Assembly: GCA_027460535.1 (NCBI GenBank)
Contig: JAPZAR010000027.1
Span: 240,001-272,000 of the forward strand
Direction of reading: 5' to 3'
DNA length: 32,000 nt
Origin: Candidatus Methanoperedens sp.
GTDB lineage: Archaea; Halobacteriota; Methanosarcinia; Methanosarcinales; Methanoperedenaceae
Positions 1,915-10,503 of this stretch are shown in pieces. A program made the position numbers and the translations under genes. Under the pieces are notes generated by a model. The model saw nothing but the letters and a program-made list of their open reading frames with translations. It was not told where the DNA came from and made no database searches. The stretch's first letter is position 1, and each line of letters opens with the position of its first letter.

Positions 1915-2982
1915 ATGTTTCCAAATTTTAAAGCGAAAAACTTGATACTAAAATTTAAAGAAATTTTGAAAAATGAGGTGAGTGACCTTTACCCGGGTTA
2001 TTTTGCCTTTATCATGGCAACCGGCATAGTCTCCATTGCATCTTATTTACAGGGAATGTCTTCGCTGGCCAGGGCACTTTTTTTCATCAATATTTTGGGT
2101 TACGTGGTTTTGTGGATTCTCACTCTGCTTCGCCTCTTCTGGCACTTTCCCAAATTCTTTTCCGATTTAATTTCCCATATCCGCGGCCCGGGATTTTTTA
2201 CACTGGTAGCGGGTACGTGCATTCTTGGGAACGAGTTCGTGCTCATTTCACAGGATTTGACCACTGCATTTTTTCTCCTGATTATCGGAACATTTCTCTG
2301 GCTTATACTGATATACGGGTTCTTTACGGCTGTCATTGTACGGGACTCAAAACCCGATCTGGAAGCAGGGATCCACGGGGGGTGGTTCATTTCTATCGTA
2401 GCTACTCAATCCGTTTCGGTTCTTGGAGCTTTGGTCGCCTCCAGGTTTTTTCCATGGCAGGAATATTTCCTTTTTCTCTCGCTTGGCCTTTTCCTTCTTG
2501 GCTCCATGCTATACATAATTATTATAACTCTTGTCTTCTACAGGCTTACATTCTTTAACCTCACTCCCGAATCATTCATACCTCTTTATTGGGTAGATAT
2601 GGGCGCCGCAGCTATTACCACACTGACGGGAGGGAGGCTTATCCTTGCCTCCGGGAATTGGGCATTTTTGCAGGAAATCCTTCCATTTCTTAAAGGATTT
2701 ACCCTGTTTTTCTGGGCCACAGCAACATGGTGGATACCCCTCCTGTTGATCCTGAGCTCATGGCGCCACCTGTACAAACGGTTCCCCCTGAGCTATGACC
2801 CCCAATACTGGAGCCTTGTATTTCCTCTGGGCATGTACACAGCGAGCACTTACGTATTTGCAGAGGCTACAGGACTGGCGCCGTTATACCTGATTTCCCG
2901 GTATTTCATATACGCGGCTTTACTTGCATGGTTCGTTACTTTTATCGGGATGGTGAGAAGGATTGTGAATGAAATTTATTGA
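1915..2982 (+). CDS. TDT-family (TehA/Mae1/SLAC1-like) C4-dicarboxylate/anion transporter, about 10 TM helices
   Basis: 355-aa, very hydrophobic ORF with about 10 hydrophobic segments. Pattern typical of the tellurite-resistance/dicarboxylate transporter family ([44 protein letters not shown]). I place the start at ATG 1915, 3 nt after the gltA stop, rather than at track start 1879, which overlaps gltA. Confidence 0.7.
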
Positions 2983-3591: not shown

Positions 3592-4176
3592 ATGAACAAA
3601 ACCGAAATAAAATCACGGATTTTTAATGGACTGCTTTTTCCGATACCAGGGGAGTATGCAATTGACCCCATACACAGCTTCACCTGCTTTATTGCACAAC
3701 ATCTTATGGTCGGGCAGATATGGGGATGCTTTGACTCGTTCAAAGGAAAGATCGTGATAGAAGACGATCCAACACTGTCATCTCTTGATATCAGTATTGA
3801 CACAGCGAGTATCAGCACCCACAACCCAAAACGCGATGAGGACATCCGCAGTGCAAGTTTCCTGGACGTGAAGAAATTTCCAACAATGACCTATCACAGC
3901 ACCAGTGCTACAGCTGAACCCGGAGGGCATTTGACGGTTGAAGGTGAACTGACAGTTCGCGATGTCACGAGGCCGGTACCCCTTGATGTAGTTTTTAATG
4001 GCATCGTTGACGATCCCTGGGGCAACACCCGAATTGCTTTCATCGGGAACGCAAAGATTAGCCGTAAAGACTTTGGCCTGATGACCGAATTGAATCGGGA
4101 AACAGGCGGGTTTCTGGTCGGAAAGGATATTATTATTAACATTGCCACTGAACTCCTGCCCCAAACGAACGCATGA
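3592..4176 (+). CDS. YceI-like polyisoprenoid/lipid-binding protein, no signal peptide
   Basis: 194 aa with YceI-family blocks: IDPIHSFTCF, SASFLDVKKFPTMTYHSTS, GELTVRDVTRPVPLDV and KISRKDFGL. The N-terminus is not hydrophobic. Confidence 0.8.
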   Translation: MNKTEIKSRIFNGLLFPIPGEYAIDPIHSFTCFIAQHLMVGQIWGCFDSFKGKIVIEDDPTLSSLDISIDTASISTHNPKRDEDIRSASFLDVKKFPTMTYHSTSATAEPGGHLTVEGELTVRDVTRPVPLDVVFNGIVDDPWGNTRIAFIGNAKISRKDFGLMTELNRETGGFLVGKDIIINIATELLPQTNA

Positions 4177-4201: not shown

Positions 4202-7030
4202 ATGTCAAGTAAAGTGATAGCAAAAGAACCGGGGAAAGATGACCAGCCCGAATCTCTAAAAAAGGCATCATCAGCACCATCGACAGAAACCCTGGCGGCG
4301 AGGCACGATCGTGCCCGAGCTCTCCTTGAGCGGGGGGCGCAGGCAGCAAAGCATGCATTGTCACTTGACCTTCTGGAAAAGGTACATGACCCTGTTGGTG
4401 AATATCCCTACAGGGGATGGGAAACGCTGCACCGTGAGCAGTGGAAATACGATTCTTTTGGCAGGACCACACATTCGATCAACTGCACAGGTTCCTGTAC
4501 GTGGAAGGTCTATGTCAGGAACAACATTGCATTCAAGGAGGAGCAATACGCTGATTATCCGGATATCAACTCAACTCTTCCCACCTACAACCCGAGAGGA
4601 TGCCAGAAGGGCGCAAATTACAAAGAATATGTTTACGGCCCGCAGCGGGTGAAGTATCCCCTGATACGGACAGGCAAAAGAGGTGAAGGAAAATGGCGAA
4701 AAGCCTCATGGGAAGAAGCTCTGAATTACATTGCGGACAAGATTGTTTCTGCCATATCCAATCACGGCCCCGATACAGTGACTTTCTATTCAGCCAATCC
4801 CGCAAAGTTCCTGGTTTCCTATGCCGCAGGCGCGCGCCTGGCAAACCTCATCGGCGGCGTGGTATGCACGTTCTATGATTGGGTTTCCGACCTGCCGCCC
4901 GGCGAGCCAATGACATGGGGTGTGCAAACCGATTCTTGCGAAGCAGCAGACTGGTTTAATTCAAAATATATCATAATCTGGGGTTCAAACCTGCTCGAGA
5001 CAAGGATTCCTGATGCTCATTTTGTGACCGCAGCACGAATGCATGGGACAAAGATAGTTTCTATCTCTACTGAATATAATCCCGTCTCGATACATGCGGA
5101 TATATTCATCCCGGTAAAACCCGGAACTGACGGCGCCTTGGCCCTTGGCATGGCAAATGTCATAGTGAACGGGAAGTTATATGACGAGAACTACCTGAAA
5201 CGGTTCACCGACATGCCAATGCTTGTGAGGACTGATAACGGGAAGTTCCTCAGGGAGAGCGACGTCGTACCTGGTGGAAAGACGGGTAATTTCTATTTCT
5301 GGGATGAAAACACACAAAAACCTGAACTGGCTCCCGGTACAGTTGATTGCCTGGAAAAAACCCTTGACCTTGGCGCAATAAATCCTGCACTTGTTGGAAC
5401 TTTCATGGTAGATACACTTTCAGGGAATGTAGAAGTAACAACTGTTTTTTCACTTCTCAAACAGAAACTCAATGACTACGAACCCGCAAGCGTTTCCAGC
5501 ATTACAGGAGTTGACGCTGACCTCATCATCCAGGTGGCCCGCGAGTTTGCAGGTGCAAAACCTGCCAGGATCATCGAGGGTGCAGGTGTAAACCACTATT
5601 ATCACAATGATCTTATCAACAGGAGCATGATCCTGCTTGCTGCCCTAACAGGTAATGTCGGCATCCCCGGCGGGGGGTTTGATCACTATGTAGGCCAGGA
5701 AAAATTCTGGTGCGAGGAGGGATTTTTCAAACTTGCTTTTCCTCTTGGCAATAAAAAGCAAAGATTCCAGCCAACCACACTGTGGACATACGTACACTCG
5801 AACATAGAAGCAGACCCGGAAAGCCATGACCTCTGGCCGCGCCCCATCAAAGAATACATACGCGAAAGTGTGGATAATGGCTGGATGCCGTTATATCCCG
5901 GAGGAACTCTTGACAACGGTAACACTCCCCGCGTCCTTATCGTATGGGGGGCCAACTTTCTTAACCAGGCCAAAGGTGCAGAATCCATACTGGCCAACCT
6001 CTGGCCCAGGCTTGACCTTGTAGTGGATATTGACTTTCGCATGAACACGACAGGTTTATATGCGGATGTGATACTGCCTTCTGCAAGCATGTTCGAGAAA
6101 TGGGATCTGAGTACAACTGACCTTCACTCCTACATCAACCCGTTCACTCCAATAATACCTCCGCAGCTTGATAGCAAAACAGACTGGCAGATATTTTCGC
6201 ATCTTGCCCGTGCACTTTCTGACACAAAATTCTCTTTTACAGATACGATGCCCGATGGTTCCATCACCAATCGTGATTTTTCATCACTTGTGAATGATTT
6301 CACTGCAAATGACACGCTTGCGGAAGACAAGAACGCAGGGCAGTTCATCCTGGATAATTCATTGGAAACAAAAGGTATGACAATGGATATGCTGAACGAG
6401 CAGCCCAGGCGTTTTGTGGCTACTGATAAAGGGTGGACGAGCGATATAAAAGAAGGGGAAGCCTACTACGCTTTCCAGAGGATGTACGAATTGAAACGAC
6501 CTCTTAGCACACTTACGGGACGGCAGCAGTTCTATATCGACCATGACTGGTTTTTGAGAGAGTTCCATGAGGAACTGCCCGTATACAAACCGCCTGTGGA
6601 CGGGAAAAAATACCCGCTTCGCTTTCTCACCCCGCACGGGCGGTGGAGCATTCATTCCCTGTGGCGGGATGCAAAATATCAGCTGAGGTTGCAGAGGGGT
6701 TATCCCATCGTGTACTTAAACCCGGATGATTCTTCGGCCCGCGGACTTTCGGACAACGATCCTGTTGAAATCTACAACGACTGCGGGACAATGATTGCAC
6801 ACCTGTGCATTTCGCCGCGGATGCCGAAAGGCCTGGCATTAATGTATCAGGGCTGGGAGCGCTACACATTCAATGAGGGCGGCTTCCAGAGCCCCATGAC
6901 TATCCGCATCAAGCCGACCCAGCTTGTGGGAGGTTACGGGCAGCTAAAGTTTAAGCCAAATTACTGGGGGCCTACCGGGAACCAGAAGGATACCCGCGTG
7001 GAAATCCGAAAATCCATGGAGGTTCAGTGA
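4202..7030 (+). CDS. narG: Type II DMSO-reductase-family molybdopterin oxidoreductase, alpha subunit (NarG/EbdA-like, 942 aa); substrate not assignable from sequence
   Basis: RTTHSINCTGSCTWKVYVRN is the H-x3-C-x3-C FS0 cluster motif (E. coli NarG has STHGVNCTGSCSWKIYVKN). TFYDWVSDLPPGEPMTWG matches the NarG block carrying the Asp Mo ligand. The size is that of the short type II clade. Start set at ATG 4202, because track start 4142 overlaps the YceI gene. No RR Tat motif. Confidence 0.9.
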   Translation: MSSKVIAKEPGKDDQPESLKKASSAPSTETLAARHDRARALLERGAQAAKHALSLDLLEKVHDPVGEYPYRGWETLHREQWKYDSFGRTTHSINCTGSCTWKVYVRNNIAFKEEQYADYPDINSTLPTYNPRGCQKGANYKEYVYGPQRVKYPLIRTGKRGEGKWRKASWEEALNYIADKIVSAISNHGPDTVTFYSANPAKFLVSYAAGARLANLIGGVVCTFYDWVSDLPPGEPMTWGVQTDSCEAADWFNSKYIIIWGSNLLETRIPDAHFVTAARMHGTKIVSISTEYNPVSIHADIFIPVKPGTDGALALGMANVIVNGKLYDENYLKRFTDMPMLVRTDNGKFLRESDVVPGGKTGNFYFWDENTQKPELAPGTVDCLEKTLDLGAINPALVGTFMVDTLSGNVEVTTVFSLLKQKLNDYEPASVSSITGVDADLIIQVAREFAGAKPARIIEGAGVNHYYHNDLINRSMILLAALTGNVGIPGGGFDHYVGQEKFWCEEGFFKLAFPLGNKKQRFQPTTLWTYVHSNIEADPESHDLWPRPIKEYIRESVDNGWMPLYPGGTLDNGNTPRVLIVWGANFLNQAKGAESILANLWPRLDLVVDIDFRMNTTGLYADVILPSASMFEKWDLSTTDLHSYINPFTPIIPPQLDSKTDWQIFSHLARALSDTKFSFTDTMPDGSITNRDFSSLVNDFTANDTLAEDKNAGQFILDNSLETKGMTMDMLNEQPRRFVATDKGWTSDIKEGEAYYAFQRMYELKRPLSTLTGRQQFYIDHDWFLREFHEELPVYKPPVDGKKYPLRFLTPHGRWSIHSLWRDAKYQLRLQRGYPIVYLNPDDSSARGLSDNDPVEIYNDCGTMIAHLCISPRMPKGLALMYQGWERYTFNEGGFQSPMTIRIKPTQLVGGYGQLKFKPNYWGPTGNQKDTRVEIRKSMEVQ

Positions 7031-8058
7031 TGCCCGTACAAAAACAGATAAGGATGGTGGCTGACCTTAACAAGTGTCTTGGTTGCCATACCTGTACCAT
7101 GGCATGCAAGACCATGTGGACTGACAGGAACAGCGGCCAGATGCATATGTACTGGAACAATGTGGAAACCCGGCCCGGCAATGGTTACCCGAAGAACTGG
7201 GAAACCCAGGGAGGATGGTTTGATACAAAGGACAAAAACAGCATACCGCTTCCAAGTATTAACGAAGGCTACGGCGCGCCCTGGGAATATAACTATGGCG
7301 ATGTATTGAAAACCGATGGAGGAGATGCCTCAGCATCGGCATTGATCCCAAAACCCAAACCTTCAGGATACGCAAGCAACTGGGACGAGGATGTGGGCGA
7401 TGGAACCTTCCCCAATTCCTATTATTTTTACCTTCCGCGCATATGCAACCACTGCAGCGACCCCCCATGCGTGGATGCCTGCCCGCGCCAGGCGGTCTAC
7501 AAGCGCAAGGAAGACGGGATCGTCCTTGTTGATCAGAAACGATGCAGGGGTTACCGTTATTGTATTAAAGGATGCCCCTATAAAAAAATATACTATAATC
7601 CGGATGAAAAAATAGCCCAGAAGTGCATATTCTGCTATCCCAGGATCGAGCAGCATAAAGGTAACTTATGCGCAACCCAGTGTGTTGGACGGATACATTA
7701 TGTAGGCTTTGCAGACGATACTGCCAGCAGCGTGTATAAACTTGTGAATACATGGAAAGTGGCTTTGAGGCTGCATCCTGAATTTAAAACCGAACCTAAC
7801 GTATTTTATATTCCACCTCTTTCTCCGCCTGCTTATACCAGGGCAGGCAAGCTTGCAGAAGAGCCACGCATTCCTGTTGAGATGCTTGCAAAATTGTTCG
7901 GTGACACGCCAGACCAGACCCTCGATAAGCGCGCAGAGAGAATTACAGAGATATTTTACATCATCCAGACCGAACGGGAAAAAGTGGCAAAAGGTGAAAG
8001 TTCGGAATTGATAGACCTATTAATTCCGCATTCTGAAGCTGATAGGATCCAGGTGTGA
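7030..8058 (+). CDS. narH: Type II DMSO-reductase-family iron-sulfur beta subunit (NarH/EbdB-like, four Fe-S clusters)
   Basis: Four Cys groups: CLGCHTCTMACK, CNHCSDPPCVDACP, CRGYRYCIKGCPYKKIYYN (E. coli NarH has CRGWRMCITGCPYKKIYFN, the 3Fe-4S site) and CIFCYPRIEQHKGNLCATQCVGR. ATG 7030 shares one base with the alpha stop (TGATG). Confidence 0.92.
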   Translation: MPVQKQIRMVADLNKCLGCHTCTMACKTMWTDRNSGQMHMYWNNVETRPGNGYPKNWETQGGWFDTKDKNSIPLPSINEGYGAPWEYNYGDVLKTDGGDASASALIPKPKPSGYASNWDEDVGDGTFPNSYYFYLPRICNHCSDPPCVDACPRQAVYKRKEDGIVLVDQKRCRGYRYCIKGCPYKKIYYNPDEKIAQKCIFCYPRIEQHKGNLCATQCVGRIHYVGFADDTASSVYKLVNTWKVALRLHPEFKTEPNVFYIPPLSPPAYTRAGKLAEEPRIPVEMLAKLFGDTPDQTLDKRAERITEIFYIIQTEREKVAKGESSELIDLLIPHSEADRIQV

Positions 8059-8105
8059 ACGAAATATGAAAATTTATCCTTCATTTAGAAATCCATAGGA
8101 GGTTC

Positions 8106-8756
8106 ATGCCGCCAGGCGAGACATCTTCAACAATTACGGTCGCATTTGTATCAGGGTCGAAAGCTCTTGATCCGGTGGATCCAGCCTGGGCAGTTGCTCC
8201 TGAAGCCACAATAGATTTCAGCAGGAGGCTCAACGAAGCTGGTGCAAGAACCACATTCGGGCCGGATGAGATCAGGCATGCAAAAGTGAAAGCGGTGCAT
8301 AACGGAACTGATATTTTTTTCTTCTATCAATGGAACGCTGTTACAGAAAATAATTCAGTAGCTGATTATCCCATCTTTGCGGATGCTTTTGCCATGGAGA
8401 TCCCTCTCTTCACAGAAGATAGTCCTCTCTGGATGGGTGCCATGGACAAACCTGTCAACATCATTTTCTGGAGAGCCGATCTGCCGAGGCCCGAGAATAT
8501 TGTCGCCGGCGGAATGGGGACCACCCAAATCAGCCCTGATGAAGCTTCCCAGAACATCAGGCATTACCAGAAATGGGAAAATGAAACCTGGAGCTTGATC
8601 ATAACCCGGCCGATGGCCCAAGCTTCAGAAAACCAGGTCTCCTTTATCCGCGGGAGAAGTTACAGGATAGCCTTTGCTAATTGGAAAGGCGGAGTGTATG
8701 CAGAAAGGGGCGGGCACAAAATAGTTTCGGAGTGGCAAAATCTTTCTATCCAGTGA
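8106..8756 (+). CDS. EbdC/DdhC/SerC-like gamma subunit (heme-b-binding EB_dh domain), lacking a signal peptide
   Basis: 216 aa in the position of the third operon gene. Mature-domain-like start (ALDPVDPAWAVAPE), and candidate Met/Lys heme ligands in FADAFAMEIPLF and ANWKGGVYAERGGHKIV. GGAGG lies 5 nt upstream of ATG 8106. An in-frame TGA at 8067-8069, with no start codon in between, rules out a longer N-terminus. Confidence 0.7.
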   Translation: MPPGETSSTITVAFVSGSKALDPVDPAWAVAPEATIDFSRRLNEAGARTTFGPDEIRHAKVKAVHNGTDIFFFYQWNAVTENNSVADYPIFADAFAMEIPLFTEDSPLWMGAMDKPVNIIFWRADLPRPENIVAGGMGTTQISPDEASQNIRHYQKWENETWSLIITRPMAQASENQVSFIRGRSYRIAFANWKGGVYAERGGHKIVSEWQNLSIQ

Positions 8757-8766
8757 TTCGATCAAT

Positions 8767-9456
8767 ATGTCTCAGACATCCATTAATACCCATACAGACC
8801 CCATTATTCGAAGCAACGTATACAAATTACTCTCGATCGGCTTCCGTTATCCTACGCCCCTACTCTTCAAAACGTTTCAGAATGGAAGATTCTTAGATGA
8901 ACTCATGCATAACATATCCTCAATTCCCGGGCTCAATAACCTTATCCTGGAAAGCTCTCCCATGGCAGGTCGTGAAAAAGATGCTATGAAAGGAATGACC
9001 CTGGCTGAATTCGAGATAAAATTTACCCGGACATTCGACGCTGGTACACCCATACCCCTATGTTCACCGTACGAGGGCCATTATTGCGATAAGCCAAGGA
9101 GCATGGTCATGCTTGAGGTAAGTGAATTCTACAATTTTTTCGGCCTGCACATGAGCCAGGAAGAAGGTAAACGGGAATTTCCCGATCATATCTGTGCAGA
9201 GCTTGAATTCCTGCATTTCCTGACCTTTAAGGAAGCCTTAGGAGAAGGCAAGGGCGAAAAACTCAAAGGATATCTTATGGCGCAGAAGGATTTTCTGGAA
9301 CGACACCTGATACAATGGATTCCTGAATTTTGCCTTAAACTTCAAGATTCAGCAAGTCTGCCTTTCTATGCCTGGCTTGCTCAAATTACATCACGGTTTA
9401 TCTCCTTTGAATTTGAACTGATTACTGCAAATTTAGATGAGTTTAATGAAAAATAA
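8767..9456 (+). CDS. NarJ/TorD/DdhD-family molybdoenzyme maturation chaperone (delta)
   Basis: 229 aa in the fourth position of the operon. Helical, with TorD-family features (YKLLSIGFRYP, FTRTFDAG, EFPDHICAELEFLHFL, FLERHLIQWIPEF). Confidence 0.75.
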   Translation: MSQTSINTHTDPIIRSNVYKLLSIGFRYPTPLLFKTFQNGRFLDELMHNISSIPGLNNLILESSPMAGREKDAMKGMTLAEFEIKFTRTFDAGTPIPLCSPYEGHYCDKPRSMVMLEVSEFYNFFGLHMSQEEGKREFPDHICAELEFLHFLTFKEALGEGKGEKLKGYLMAQKDFLERHLIQWIPEFCLKLQDSASLPFYAWLAQITSRFISFEFELITANLDEFNEK

Positions 9457-9528
9457 GGAATATTTTTTAAAAATATGAATCCGGTCTTTGGATAATCATT
9501 AAGTACTATCCATCCAATAAAATCAGGT

Positions 9529-10503
9529 ATGTTCCCGACAACGCGCATGCGAAGATTGCGCTCATCAAAGTTCCGCCCCATTGTGAGGGAGACGCAGCTT
9601 GAAGTCAAGGATTTGATATGCCCTGTTTTTGTGGATGAGACCATAACGGAACCATCTGAAATAAATTCCATGCCTGGCTATTATCGCCTTCCGCTTGATA
9701 TGGTTGCGGATGAGGCTCAATGCATCCTGGATCTGGGAATTCCGTCAATCATCCTTTTTGGCATACCCGGAGAGAAAGACGAGACCGGGACTCATGCCTA
9801 TGGCGAAAATGACGTAATCCAGAAAGCGATCCGTGCCATCAGGAAGGAGGACGGGGAGGATATTATTATTATGACCGACCTGTGCCTGTGCGAATATACA
9901 TCGCATGGTCACTGCGGAGTGGTGAGCGAAACGCATGAGATCCTCAATGACCCCACGCTTGAGATCCTGGGGATGGCCGCAGTGAGCCATGCGAAAGCGG
10001 GCGCGGATATCGTCGCACCTTCCGGAATGATGGACGGCATGGTGGGTGCCATACGCCGTGCACTCGATGGGAATGGTTTCACGAACACGCCCATAATGTC
10101 CTATGCAGCAAAGTACTGCTCTGTATTCTACGGCCCTTTCAGGGAAGCAGCCGGCTCGGGCTTCTCCTTCGGGGACAGGGCATCATACCAGATGGACCCC
10201 GGGAATGCGGATGAGGCAATGCGTGAAGTCGCGCTTGATATCGAAGAAGGCGCAGATATTATCATGGTCAAACCAGCGCTGCCTTACCTGGACATTGTTT
10301 ACCGTGTGAAAAAGAAGTTCAGGATGCCGACTGCGGCCTATCATGTCAGCGGTGAATATTCCATGATAAAAGCCGCCGCTGCGAAGGGCTGGCTGGATGA
10401 GCGAAAGGCTGTGCTTGAGTCGTTGCTGTCCATAAAACGAGCAGGAGCGGATATGATCCTGACGTATTTCGCCAAAGACGCTGCGAAAATGCTTGGTGAA
10501 TAG
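9529..10503 (+). CDS. hemB: Porphobilinogen synthase (delta-aminolevulinate dehydratase), Zn-type
   Basis: 324 aa with canonical MRRLRSSKFRPIVRET, the Cys-rich Zn site DLCLCEYTSHGHCG, the active-site Lys blocks IMVKPALPYLDI and SGEYSM, and YFA near the C-terminus. Confidence 0.97.
   Translation: MFPTTRMRRLRSSKFRPIVRETQLEVKDLICPVFVDETITEPSEINSMPGYYRLPLDMVADEAQCILDLGIPSIILFGIPGEKDETGTHAYGENDVIQKAIRAIRKEDGEDIIIMTDLCLCEYTSHGHCGVVSETHEILNDPTLEILGMAAVSHAKAGADIVAPSGMMDGMVGAIRRALDGNGFTNTPIMSYAAKYCSVFYGPFREAAGSGFSFGDRASYQMDPGNADEAMREVALDIEEGADIIMVKPALPYLDIVYRVKKKFRMPTAAYHVSGEYSMIKAAAAKGWLDERKAVLESLLSIKRAGADMILTYFAKDAAKMLGE

Follow-up and report, generated by a model that had tools for sequence, protein, structure and literature searches.

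A 32,000-nucleotide stretch of a genome of the methane-oxidising archaeon Candidatus Methanoperedens (the window; genome 99.8%-complete) contains, at positions 4202-9456, four co-directional genes in the order alpha-beta-gamma-delta (Table 1), which together encode a molybdoenzyme of the type II dimethyl sulfoxide (DMSO) reductase family whose cellular location and substrate are considered here. The family assignment, first proposed from the bare sequence in the original prediction, is confirmed by the agreement of the family models, the iron-sulfur cluster FS0 and aspartate ligand of alpha, the cysteine pattern of beta and the EbdC fold of gamma. Alpha passed TIGR03479, the model for the molybdopterin subunit of type II DMSO reductases (1081.6 bits; cut-off 984.75), and the best models for beta (TIGR03478, 458 bits; cut-off 480.7), gamma (TIGR03477, 149 bits; cut-off 169.9) and delta (TIGR03482, 142.8 bits; cut-off 152.3) scored just below their thresholds. 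Alpha failed the equivalog models for NarG (TIGR01580; 597 bits versus a cut-off of 1084) and EbdA (399 versus 2000 bits), beta failed that for EbdB (349 versus 740 bits) and gamma that for EbdC (78 versus 400). The ATG at 4202 is supported as the alpha start by the start sites of homologues, while the beta ATG overlaps the alpha stop by one base (TGATG) and is preceded by GGAGG. The operon includes neither a membrane subunit gene nor a cytochrome c gene. As originally noted, a NarI-type anchor is missing from it, and a search of the whole genome with PF02665 returned a single match of 19.5 bits, below the Pfam cut-off, leaving no NarI-type protein above threshold. The sole other molybdopterin enzyme of the genome is a protein of FwdB size.

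Table 1 Features of the molybdoenzyme locus, with positions in the window. Mo-bisPGD, molybdenum-bis(pyranopterin guanine dinucleotide); Tat, twin-arginine translocation
Feature	Position	Strand	Description
SLAC1/TDT (TehA-like) anion carrier	1915..2982	+	PF03595 7.8e-44; proposed nitrate/nitrite carrier
YceI-like protein without signal peptide	3592..4176	+	PF04264 3.8e-38; optional neighbour
alpha	4202..7030	+	942 aa; Mo-bisPGD catalytic subunit with FS0, pNar/PcrA type
Remnant (decayed) Tat leader of alpha	4202..4387	+	residues 1-62; proposed docking peptide for delta
beta	7030..8058	+	342 aa; four-cluster iron-sulfur electron wire; TIGR03478 458 bits
gamma	8106..8756	+	216 aa; EbdC/NxrC-fold heme-b protein without signal peptide; PF09459 and TIGR03477
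delta	8767..9456	+	229 aa; TorD/NarJ-family maturation chaperone; PF02613 3e-22, TIGR03482 142.8 bits

The cofactor sites of the complex are conserved. The FS0 ligands H91, C95, C99 and C134 (pattern H-x3-C-x3-C...C) and the molybdenum ligand D230, which sits in the motif YDWVSD230LPPGEP, were invariant across an alignment of 39 alpha sequences. The 15 cysteines of beta follow the NarH/EbdB pattern, which provides for three [4Fe-4S] clusters and one [3Fe-4S] cluster; they are arranged in groups at residues 16-26, 139-151, 172-182 and 199-218, with the three-cysteine group at 172-182 assigned to the [3Fe-4S] cluster. Similarly, M110 and K205 of gamma were invariant among the gammas aligned, and align with the heme ligands M108 and K201 of EbdC. 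The AlphaFold2 model of gamma (predicted local distance difference test score, pLDDT, 83.9; strand 1 at residues 9-14 with pLDDT >90) was matched by Foldseek to EbdC (2ivf_C) with a template modelling score of 0.82 and to Kuenenia NxrC (7b04_C) with a score of 0.81.

Export of related enzymes relies on Tat for alpha and on Sec for gamma. The 120 best alpha homologues were screened for such signals, and in all full-length sequences from P0019 to P0124 an RRxF[L/I] Tat motif precedes a stretch of 11 or more uncharged residues. The examined members of the clade to which the window alpha belongs (n = 15: the window, P0005-P0017 of Methanoperedens type, and Brocadia) lack a twin arginine, have no uncharged stretch longer than 8 residues and retain a charged helical remnant in this region. 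The window alpha itself has no RR, and ahead of its mature domain the longest uncharged stretch is 7 residues. The absence of RR-x-F-L-K that had been pointed out for the window therefore holds clade-wide. Residues 1-62 match the TRREFLK motif, hydrophobic h-region and ALALDLL stretch of Tat-bearing sisters position by position, with the twin arginine gone and an h-region that holds 7 basic and 2 acidic residues. Because the archaeal tail (AARHDRARALLERGAQAAKH-ALSLDLL) aligns with the bacterial leader (TRREFLKTAAAAAGTLVATD-ALALDLL), it represents a decayed Tat signal rather than new sequence. A Tat leader hidden further upstream was considered and rejected, as no upstream start yields one and extension of the alpha frame from 4142 adds only LPLNSCPKRTHDACIQVLVI, with no RR. 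AlphaFold2 (mean pLDDT of the alpha model only 76) placed a long polar helix at residues 28-53 (pLDDT about 42-51) after a disordered stretch at 1-27, a predicted arrangement that fits a partner-bound peptide, and residues 26-62 showed non-synonymous divergence (dN) of 0.03-0.30 against synonymous divergence (dS) of 0.6-2.8.

In alpha trees built with FastTree and IQ-TREE from alignments without the N-terminal columns and rooted with PcrA as the outgroup, the signal-less alphas formed one branch (FastTree support 100; IQ-TREE Shimodaira-Hasegawa-like approximate likelihood ratio test 100) nested below two Tat-bearing nodes with support of 98 and 100. As the signal-less clade is both monophyletic and nested among Tat-bearing bacterial enzymes, a single loss suffices to explain it. 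Judged by these sequences, alpha belongs to a distinct clade that lies outside the characterised exported or membrane-bound clades and is marked by joint loss of the Tat and Sec signals.

The second of these losses is seen in gamma. The gammas of 14 clade members (205-233 aa) start a few residues before the first mature strand ('ITAxYVxG'), with only 8 residues ahead of strand 1 in the window, while the 12 bacterial gammas (240-278 aa) have a Sec-type signal, with a basic n-region and a hydrophobic h-region, ahead of the mature strand. The window gamma starts at an ATG at 8106 preceded by a GGAGG Shine-Dalgarno sequence; the in-frame TGA at 8067-8069 lies 13 codons upstream, and the 12 codons between the two contain no ATG, GTG or TTG. 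Gamma thus begins at its mature domain, and the in-frame stop on which this claim had originally been based was found as described. The residues HRRF encoded upstream of gamma were also considered as a hidden Tat motif and dismissed, as there is no start codon among the 12 codons and the RR is the translation of the GGAGG ribosome-binding site. On this sequence evidence, the alpha Tat and gamma Sec signals were lost together in the same clade. The gamma frames of two other genomes, G039 (L049, about 9830-10055) and G038 (L057, about 9870-10090), are open through the conserved N-terminal domain and have no ATG, GTG or TTG before approximately residue 64, so that translation may begin at a non-canonical codon or the sequence may contain an error.

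The host genome provides its own controls, as it encodes two TatC proteins and another EB_dh protein that bears a clear signal peptide, so the signals are missing from the enzyme and not from the organism. This second EB_dh protein (387 aa; L004 1345-2508, minus strand; G000:C15) has, besides its N-terminal signal peptide, a C-terminal Thr/Ala-rich linker that leads into a hydrophobic, PGF/PEF-CTERM-like anchor with RRR at its end. It probably sits at the cell surface as a heme-b protein, and the genome has no molybdoenzyme gene to partner it.

Export to the pseudoperiplasm by a non-canonical route, whether by hitch-hiking on an unlinked Tat substrate or by an atypical archaeal signal, is improbable. 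The beta subunits of the family do normally hitch-hike, having no signal themselves, the genome encodes a Tat machinery and the conserved alpha tail could in principle serve as a recognition peptide; however, no twin arginine or uncharged h-region occurs on any of the four subunits, which leaves no signal for the others to ride on. In addition, both of the signals that relatives use were lost in the same clade, identical losses occur in Brocadia, which as a bacterium uses canonical Tat and Sec signals, and an anion carrier was gained only by the signal-less clade (see below). With both export signals gone, no membrane anchor encoded, no upstream start that gives a Tat leader, no membership in a characterised exported clade and no subunit signal on which to hitch-hike, the soluble cytoplasmic enzyme originally predicted from the window withstands scrutiny, and a cytoplasmic location is very likely.

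The operon was present in 13 of 53 Methanoperedenaceae genomes surveyed (relatives that are non-independent samples), in most of them within a conserved succinate dehydrogenase and citrate synthase neighbourhood. Six genomes had open frames of about 1157-1172 aa, taken to be the exported Nar of NxrA type known from publications; two of the six had canonical NarG, and none of the 13 operon carriers had either the exported Nar or canonical NarG. The same alpha-beta-gamma-delta order was found in anammox bacteria (Candidatus Brocadia), with an alpha that is 74-76% and a gamma that is 65% identical to those of the window, and with neither a Tat motif on alpha nor a signal on gamma. The Brocadia sequences are sister to those of Methanoperedens inside the signal-less clade, and transfer between the two domains thus came after signal loss, in a direction that cannot be rooted.

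The operon could instead be a decaying, non-functional relic of an exported enzyme, an explanation that would account for the disappearance of both signals, the patchy spread through the family and the in-frame stop or split in the alphas of two relatives. This is highly improbable given that dN/dS was 0.06-0.2 over the four genes at dS up to about 2 (alpha and beta 0.06-0.10, gamma 0.09-0.15 and delta 0.15-0.2; 0.15-0.18 for the linked TDT carrier), every cofactor ligand is invariant and the operon has been kept in both an archaeon and a bacterium. Substitution patterns of this kind indicate purifying selection on all genes, the remnant tail included, and hence an operon that is functional and not decaying. 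The two disrupted alphas are those of G018 (L031 7983-10782), which is split into 846 and 93 aa, and G049 (L014), which has one in-frame TGA within the match; each may reflect a pseudogene or an assembly error.

The strongest functional evidence at hand is the linkage of the operon to anion carriers. A SLAC1/TDT gene lies upstream of the operon in the window, with a start at 1915 that matches that of the database protein P0225 (355 aa). TDT homologues were found in 14 of the 53 genomes. Of these 14, nine are among the 13 operon carriers, a tenth operon carrier retains a TDT remnant beside alpha, two are the genomes with canonical NarGHI and two (G027 and G041) are incomplete; the four surveyed genomes with exported Nar alone had no homologue. 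The carrier is co-directional with the operon in the window, G038 and G043 (citrate synthase, TDT, in some cases YceI, then alpha) and divergent, immediately upstream of alpha, in G017 and G018. In a BLZ2-like Methanoperedens (L041; TDT at 9115-10170), the order is cytochrome c, narG, narH, narJ, narI, TDT, and bacterial homologues 58-62% identical to the carrier lie directly downstream of canonical narGHJI in all four contigs sampled (L063-L066, 9001-10100). One of these four contigs belongs to an Anaerolineae metagenome-assembled genome (MAG), and in one an FNT nitrite channel follows. The place ahead of the operon is taken in three Brocadia genomes by a CLC transporter that has CBS and TrkA_C domains, not by TDT. 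No adjacent transporter occurred in the three Tat-bearing sister operons examined, which have the same gene order and gammas of signal-bearing length (240-273 aa). An enzyme acting outside the membrane needs no anion carrier. That only the signal-less clade recruited two unrelated carriers, one of them tied to nar operons, points to a cytoplasmic site and to nitrate as the substrate, and it marks the SLAC1/TDT subfamily found behind narGHJI as a candidate nitrate/nitrite carrier family. This subfamily is usually annotated as 'tellurite resistance/C4-dicarboxylate transporter'; an alternative link of the carrier to citrate synthase or dicarboxylates is contradicted by its nar linkage. The selectivity region of the Brocadia CLC protein (L034 4106-6148) is unusual, with 'GVAGVME' and 'GPEDP' in place of the motifs GSGIPE and GREGP of E. 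coli CLC.

The active site adds a further line of evidence on the substrate. The top solved relative of alpha was the perchlorate reductase subunit PcrA (4ydd/5e7o; E 1e-262 to 1e-263, 50.5% identity over 853 aligned positions). The gate of the window alpha is formed by F224-Y225 and E500, and at the position of E500, PcrA has Trp461; a Glu at this position is the state of E. coli NarG and Haloferax pNarG. Five changes are fixed in the signal-less clade (I199N, Y228V, N611D, A618G and V624I), each at a position where at least 102 of 104 Tat-bearing relatives have the other residue, and Y228V lies two residues before the molybdenum ligand at an otherwise invariant tyrosine.

These features bear on a second possibility, that the enzyme is cytoplasmic but its substrate is not nitrate: it might reduce a different oxyanion, such as chlorate, perchlorate or selenate, possibly in detoxification, or act oxidatively in the manner of nitrite oxidoreductase, dimethyl sulfide (DMS) dehydrogenase or ethylbenzene dehydrogenase. 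PcrA is the closest solved relative, Y228V is a clade-specific change beside the molybdenum ligand, chloride is also moved by CLC and SLAC1 carriers, pNar-type enzymes promiscuously accept chlorate and perchlorate (PMC8301774), and for the present enzyme (per)chlorate was raised by the authors who first described it, because nitrate could not be detected at their site (PMC8561730). We nevertheless regard a non-nitrate substrate as unlikely, as the Trp461 that defines PcrA is Glu here, chlorite dismutase is absent from the genome, the linked TDT subfamily is specific to the position behind narGHJI operons, the EbdA equivalog was failed by a wide score difference (see above) and the neighbours that might hint at a hydrophobic substrate (SnoaL and YceI) occur in only 2-3 genomes. 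Respiration of perchlorate or chlorate in particular was rejected on the first two of these grounds.

Taken together, the enzyme is probably a cytoplasmic oxyanion reductase, most likely for nitrate, that descended from an exported enzyme of the pNar/PcrA type. In one ancestor, the alpha Tat leader would have decayed to the charged helical tail and the gamma Sec signal would have been lost, so that the alpha-beta-gamma complex would stay in the cytoplasm, either in soluble form or with no more than a peripheral attachment to the membrane. Delta, as a member of the NarJ/TorD family, most likely binds the remnant leader and holds alpha for insertion of Mo-bisPGD and FS0, much as E. coli NarJ acts on the vestigial NarG leader. 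The substrate, nitrate or a related oxyanion, would enter and nitrite leave through the TDT carrier, or through CLC in some Brocadia, with nitrate reduced to nitrite at the Mo-bisPGD centre. Electrons would pass from heme b of gamma through FS4 to FS1 of beta and then via FS0 to the molybdenum of alpha, the direction of this path being the presumed one. The suspicion in the original prediction that the usual label of 'respiratory nitrate reductase' could mislead as to location, electron partner or substrate was thus supported for the first two; the third part was not, as the NarG-like Phe-Tyr...Glu gate and nar-associated carrier indicate that the substrate is probably still nitrate.

Several points weigh against this interpretation. 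The signal calls are based on motif and hydrophobicity rules combined with comparative alignment. The physiological role of nitrate is suggested by gate residues and gene linkage only, and on that footing we consider it slightly favoured; Y228V could signal altered chemistry and is the chief ground for caution over the substrate, and the Tat-bearing bacterial sister clade is widespread and itself uncharacterised. The carrier linkage also has exceptions, as three operon carriers (G020, G044 and G040, two of them incomplete genomes) had no TDT match and a fourth Brocadia MAG (L054) had no adjacent CLC gene, and a channel-type carrier would favour anion efflux over uptake. We know of nothing in the cytoplasm that donates electrons to a heme-b gamma subunit. 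Finally, the host genome has only sub-threshold multihaem matches to NrfA and no FNT nitrite channel; with chlorite dismutase (PF06778) absent as well, nitrite would most simply be exported. One small NIR_SIR/ferredoxin-type protein was also identified in the genome.

The enzyme closely resembles the pNarGH enzymes with an Orf7/NarC-type heme-b subunit from Haloferax mediterranei and Pyrobaculum, and the wider TIGR03479 group (Pcr, Ser, Clr, Ddh and Ebd), in its alpha-beta-gamma-delta composition, aspartate ligand, FS0 and TorD-like chaperone, and it shares the Phe-Tyr...Glu gate of Haloferax NarG and the EbdC fold with Met/Lys heme ligation of type II gammas. In contrast to these systems, it lacks the alpha Tat and gamma Sec signals, has no Rieske/cytochrome b, NarM, NapH or cytochrome c partner, and carries a linked anion carrier and the Y228V change. 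PcrAB of Azospira (4ydd and 5e7o) shares the aspartate ligand and the Phe-Tyr gate pair; however, PcrA has a Tat signal and Trp461 where the window alpha has no signal and a Glu, and the window genome has no chlorite dismutase to accompany such an activity. Pcr also uses a multihaem PcrC in place of the EbdC-like gamma. With NarGHJI, the enzyme has in common a predicted cytoplasm-facing site, a remnant leader paired with a NarJ-family chaperone, the presumed need for a nitrate/nitrite carrier and the linked SLAC1/TDT subfamily. It differs in the length of alpha (942 aa versus about 1210-1250 aa for NarG), in its third subunit, where a soluble heme-b protein of the EbdC type replaces the di-heme membrane protein NarI and no quinol link is evident, and in a relocation to the cytoplasm that appears to be independent. 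NarG of the bacterial enzyme keeps a vestigial Tat leader that NarJ binds, in line with the 'remnant signal peptides' idea attributed to Ize and colleagues (2009).

The existence of the enzyme is already known. It was reported by Vazquez-Campos et al. in 2021 as 'NarG_LFLS/PcrA_LFLS' from Methanoperedens MAGs of the Little Forest Legacy Site, where it was assigned to TIGR03479, near Haloferax NarG and PcrA, with the lack of chlorite dismutase noted (PMC8561730). The LFW-24 and LFW-280 MAGs matched directly in our genome scan (78-86% identity), which places NarG_LFLS in the same clade. Leu et al. in 2020 described unclassified 'Unk' clades of complex iron-sulfur molybdoenzymes (CISM) that group with Brocadia proteins (PMC7327174); from this description, we guess that these are possibly the signal-less clade. 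The consulted passages of both papers do not mention missing signals, location, carrier linkage or a clade-specific active-site change, and text searches of the former found neither 'TAT' nor 'cytoplasm' (PMC8561730; PMC7327174). Literature searches likewise returned no described cytoplasmic type II enzyme in Brocadia or Methanoperedens. The Nar so far published for Methanoperedens is encoded as NarG-NarH-NarJ-Orf7-HCOII-NapH-HCOII with signal peptides on NarG and Orf7 (PMC4683180; PMC5690323), and is a different cluster from the window operon. What is new here is the inferred relocation to the cytoplasm, the joint loss of signals, the link to Brocadia and the nar-type carrier.

The site of nitrate reduction sets whether and by what means the reaction conserves energy, what transporters the cell requires and where toxic nitrite appears. 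According to the accepted model for Methanoperedens, nitrate is reduced outside the membrane behind a long electron-export chain (PMC4683180). Because the operon carriers of the 53-genome survey lack both the exported Nar and canonical NarGHI, a cytoplasmic reductase would, if real, revise the physiology predicted for a quarter of the family and for some Brocadia. It would also offer a natural experiment for the 'remnant signal peptide' hypothesis, with a Tat leader kept only as a handle for its chaperone, and it raises the question of what donates electrons to an EbdC-type cytochrome b inside the cell. As a tentative and rather doubtful extension, the enzyme may represent a second, independent move of a Nar from an outward-facing to a cytoplasmic position, as a soluble enzyme supplied with nitrate through SLAC1/TDT, a type of nitrate/nitrite carrier not recognised before, and with its heme b fed not by quinol or cytochrome c but by an F420H2-, ferredoxin- or thiol-linked carrier of reverse methanogenesis. 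Were this so, Methanoperedens species at present regarded as metal reducers could couple methane oxidation to nitrate without electron export, and transfer of the module would have taken place between archaea and anammox bacteria of the same habitats.

Other genes around the operon are less consistently associated with it. The YceI-like gene ends 25 nt upstream of alpha and its N-terminus runs directly into the mature YceI domain, but it adjoins alpha in only three genomes (the window, G020 and G038); the window protein could be a cytoplasmic isoprenoid- or quinone-binding protein. A hydrophobic substrate, as might be hinted at by SnoaL and YceI, was rejected, since apart from the window only one genome has SnoaL, and two have YceI, next to the operon, and neither is core to it. 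The hemB gene lies directly downstream of delta at 9529-10503, as originally described; the accompanying argument that it supplies the heme b is dropped, as this adjacency is peculiar to the window genome, with no hemB match in the stretches fetched from 11 other Methanoperedens genomes and Brocadia, some of which end at a contig edge soon after delta. Glutamate dehydrogenase is found beside the operon in three Methanoperedens genomes (L021 2380-3654, L027 13211-14485 and L030 6533-7816); it was set aside as evidence for assimilation and taken as part of the shared neighbourhood (sdh, citrate synthase). Among the Tat-bearing sisters, Geobacter pickeringii (CP009788.1; L044) encodes two tandem operons, which are flanked by PEP-CTERM-domain proteins and by a 1318-aa fn3-type protein.

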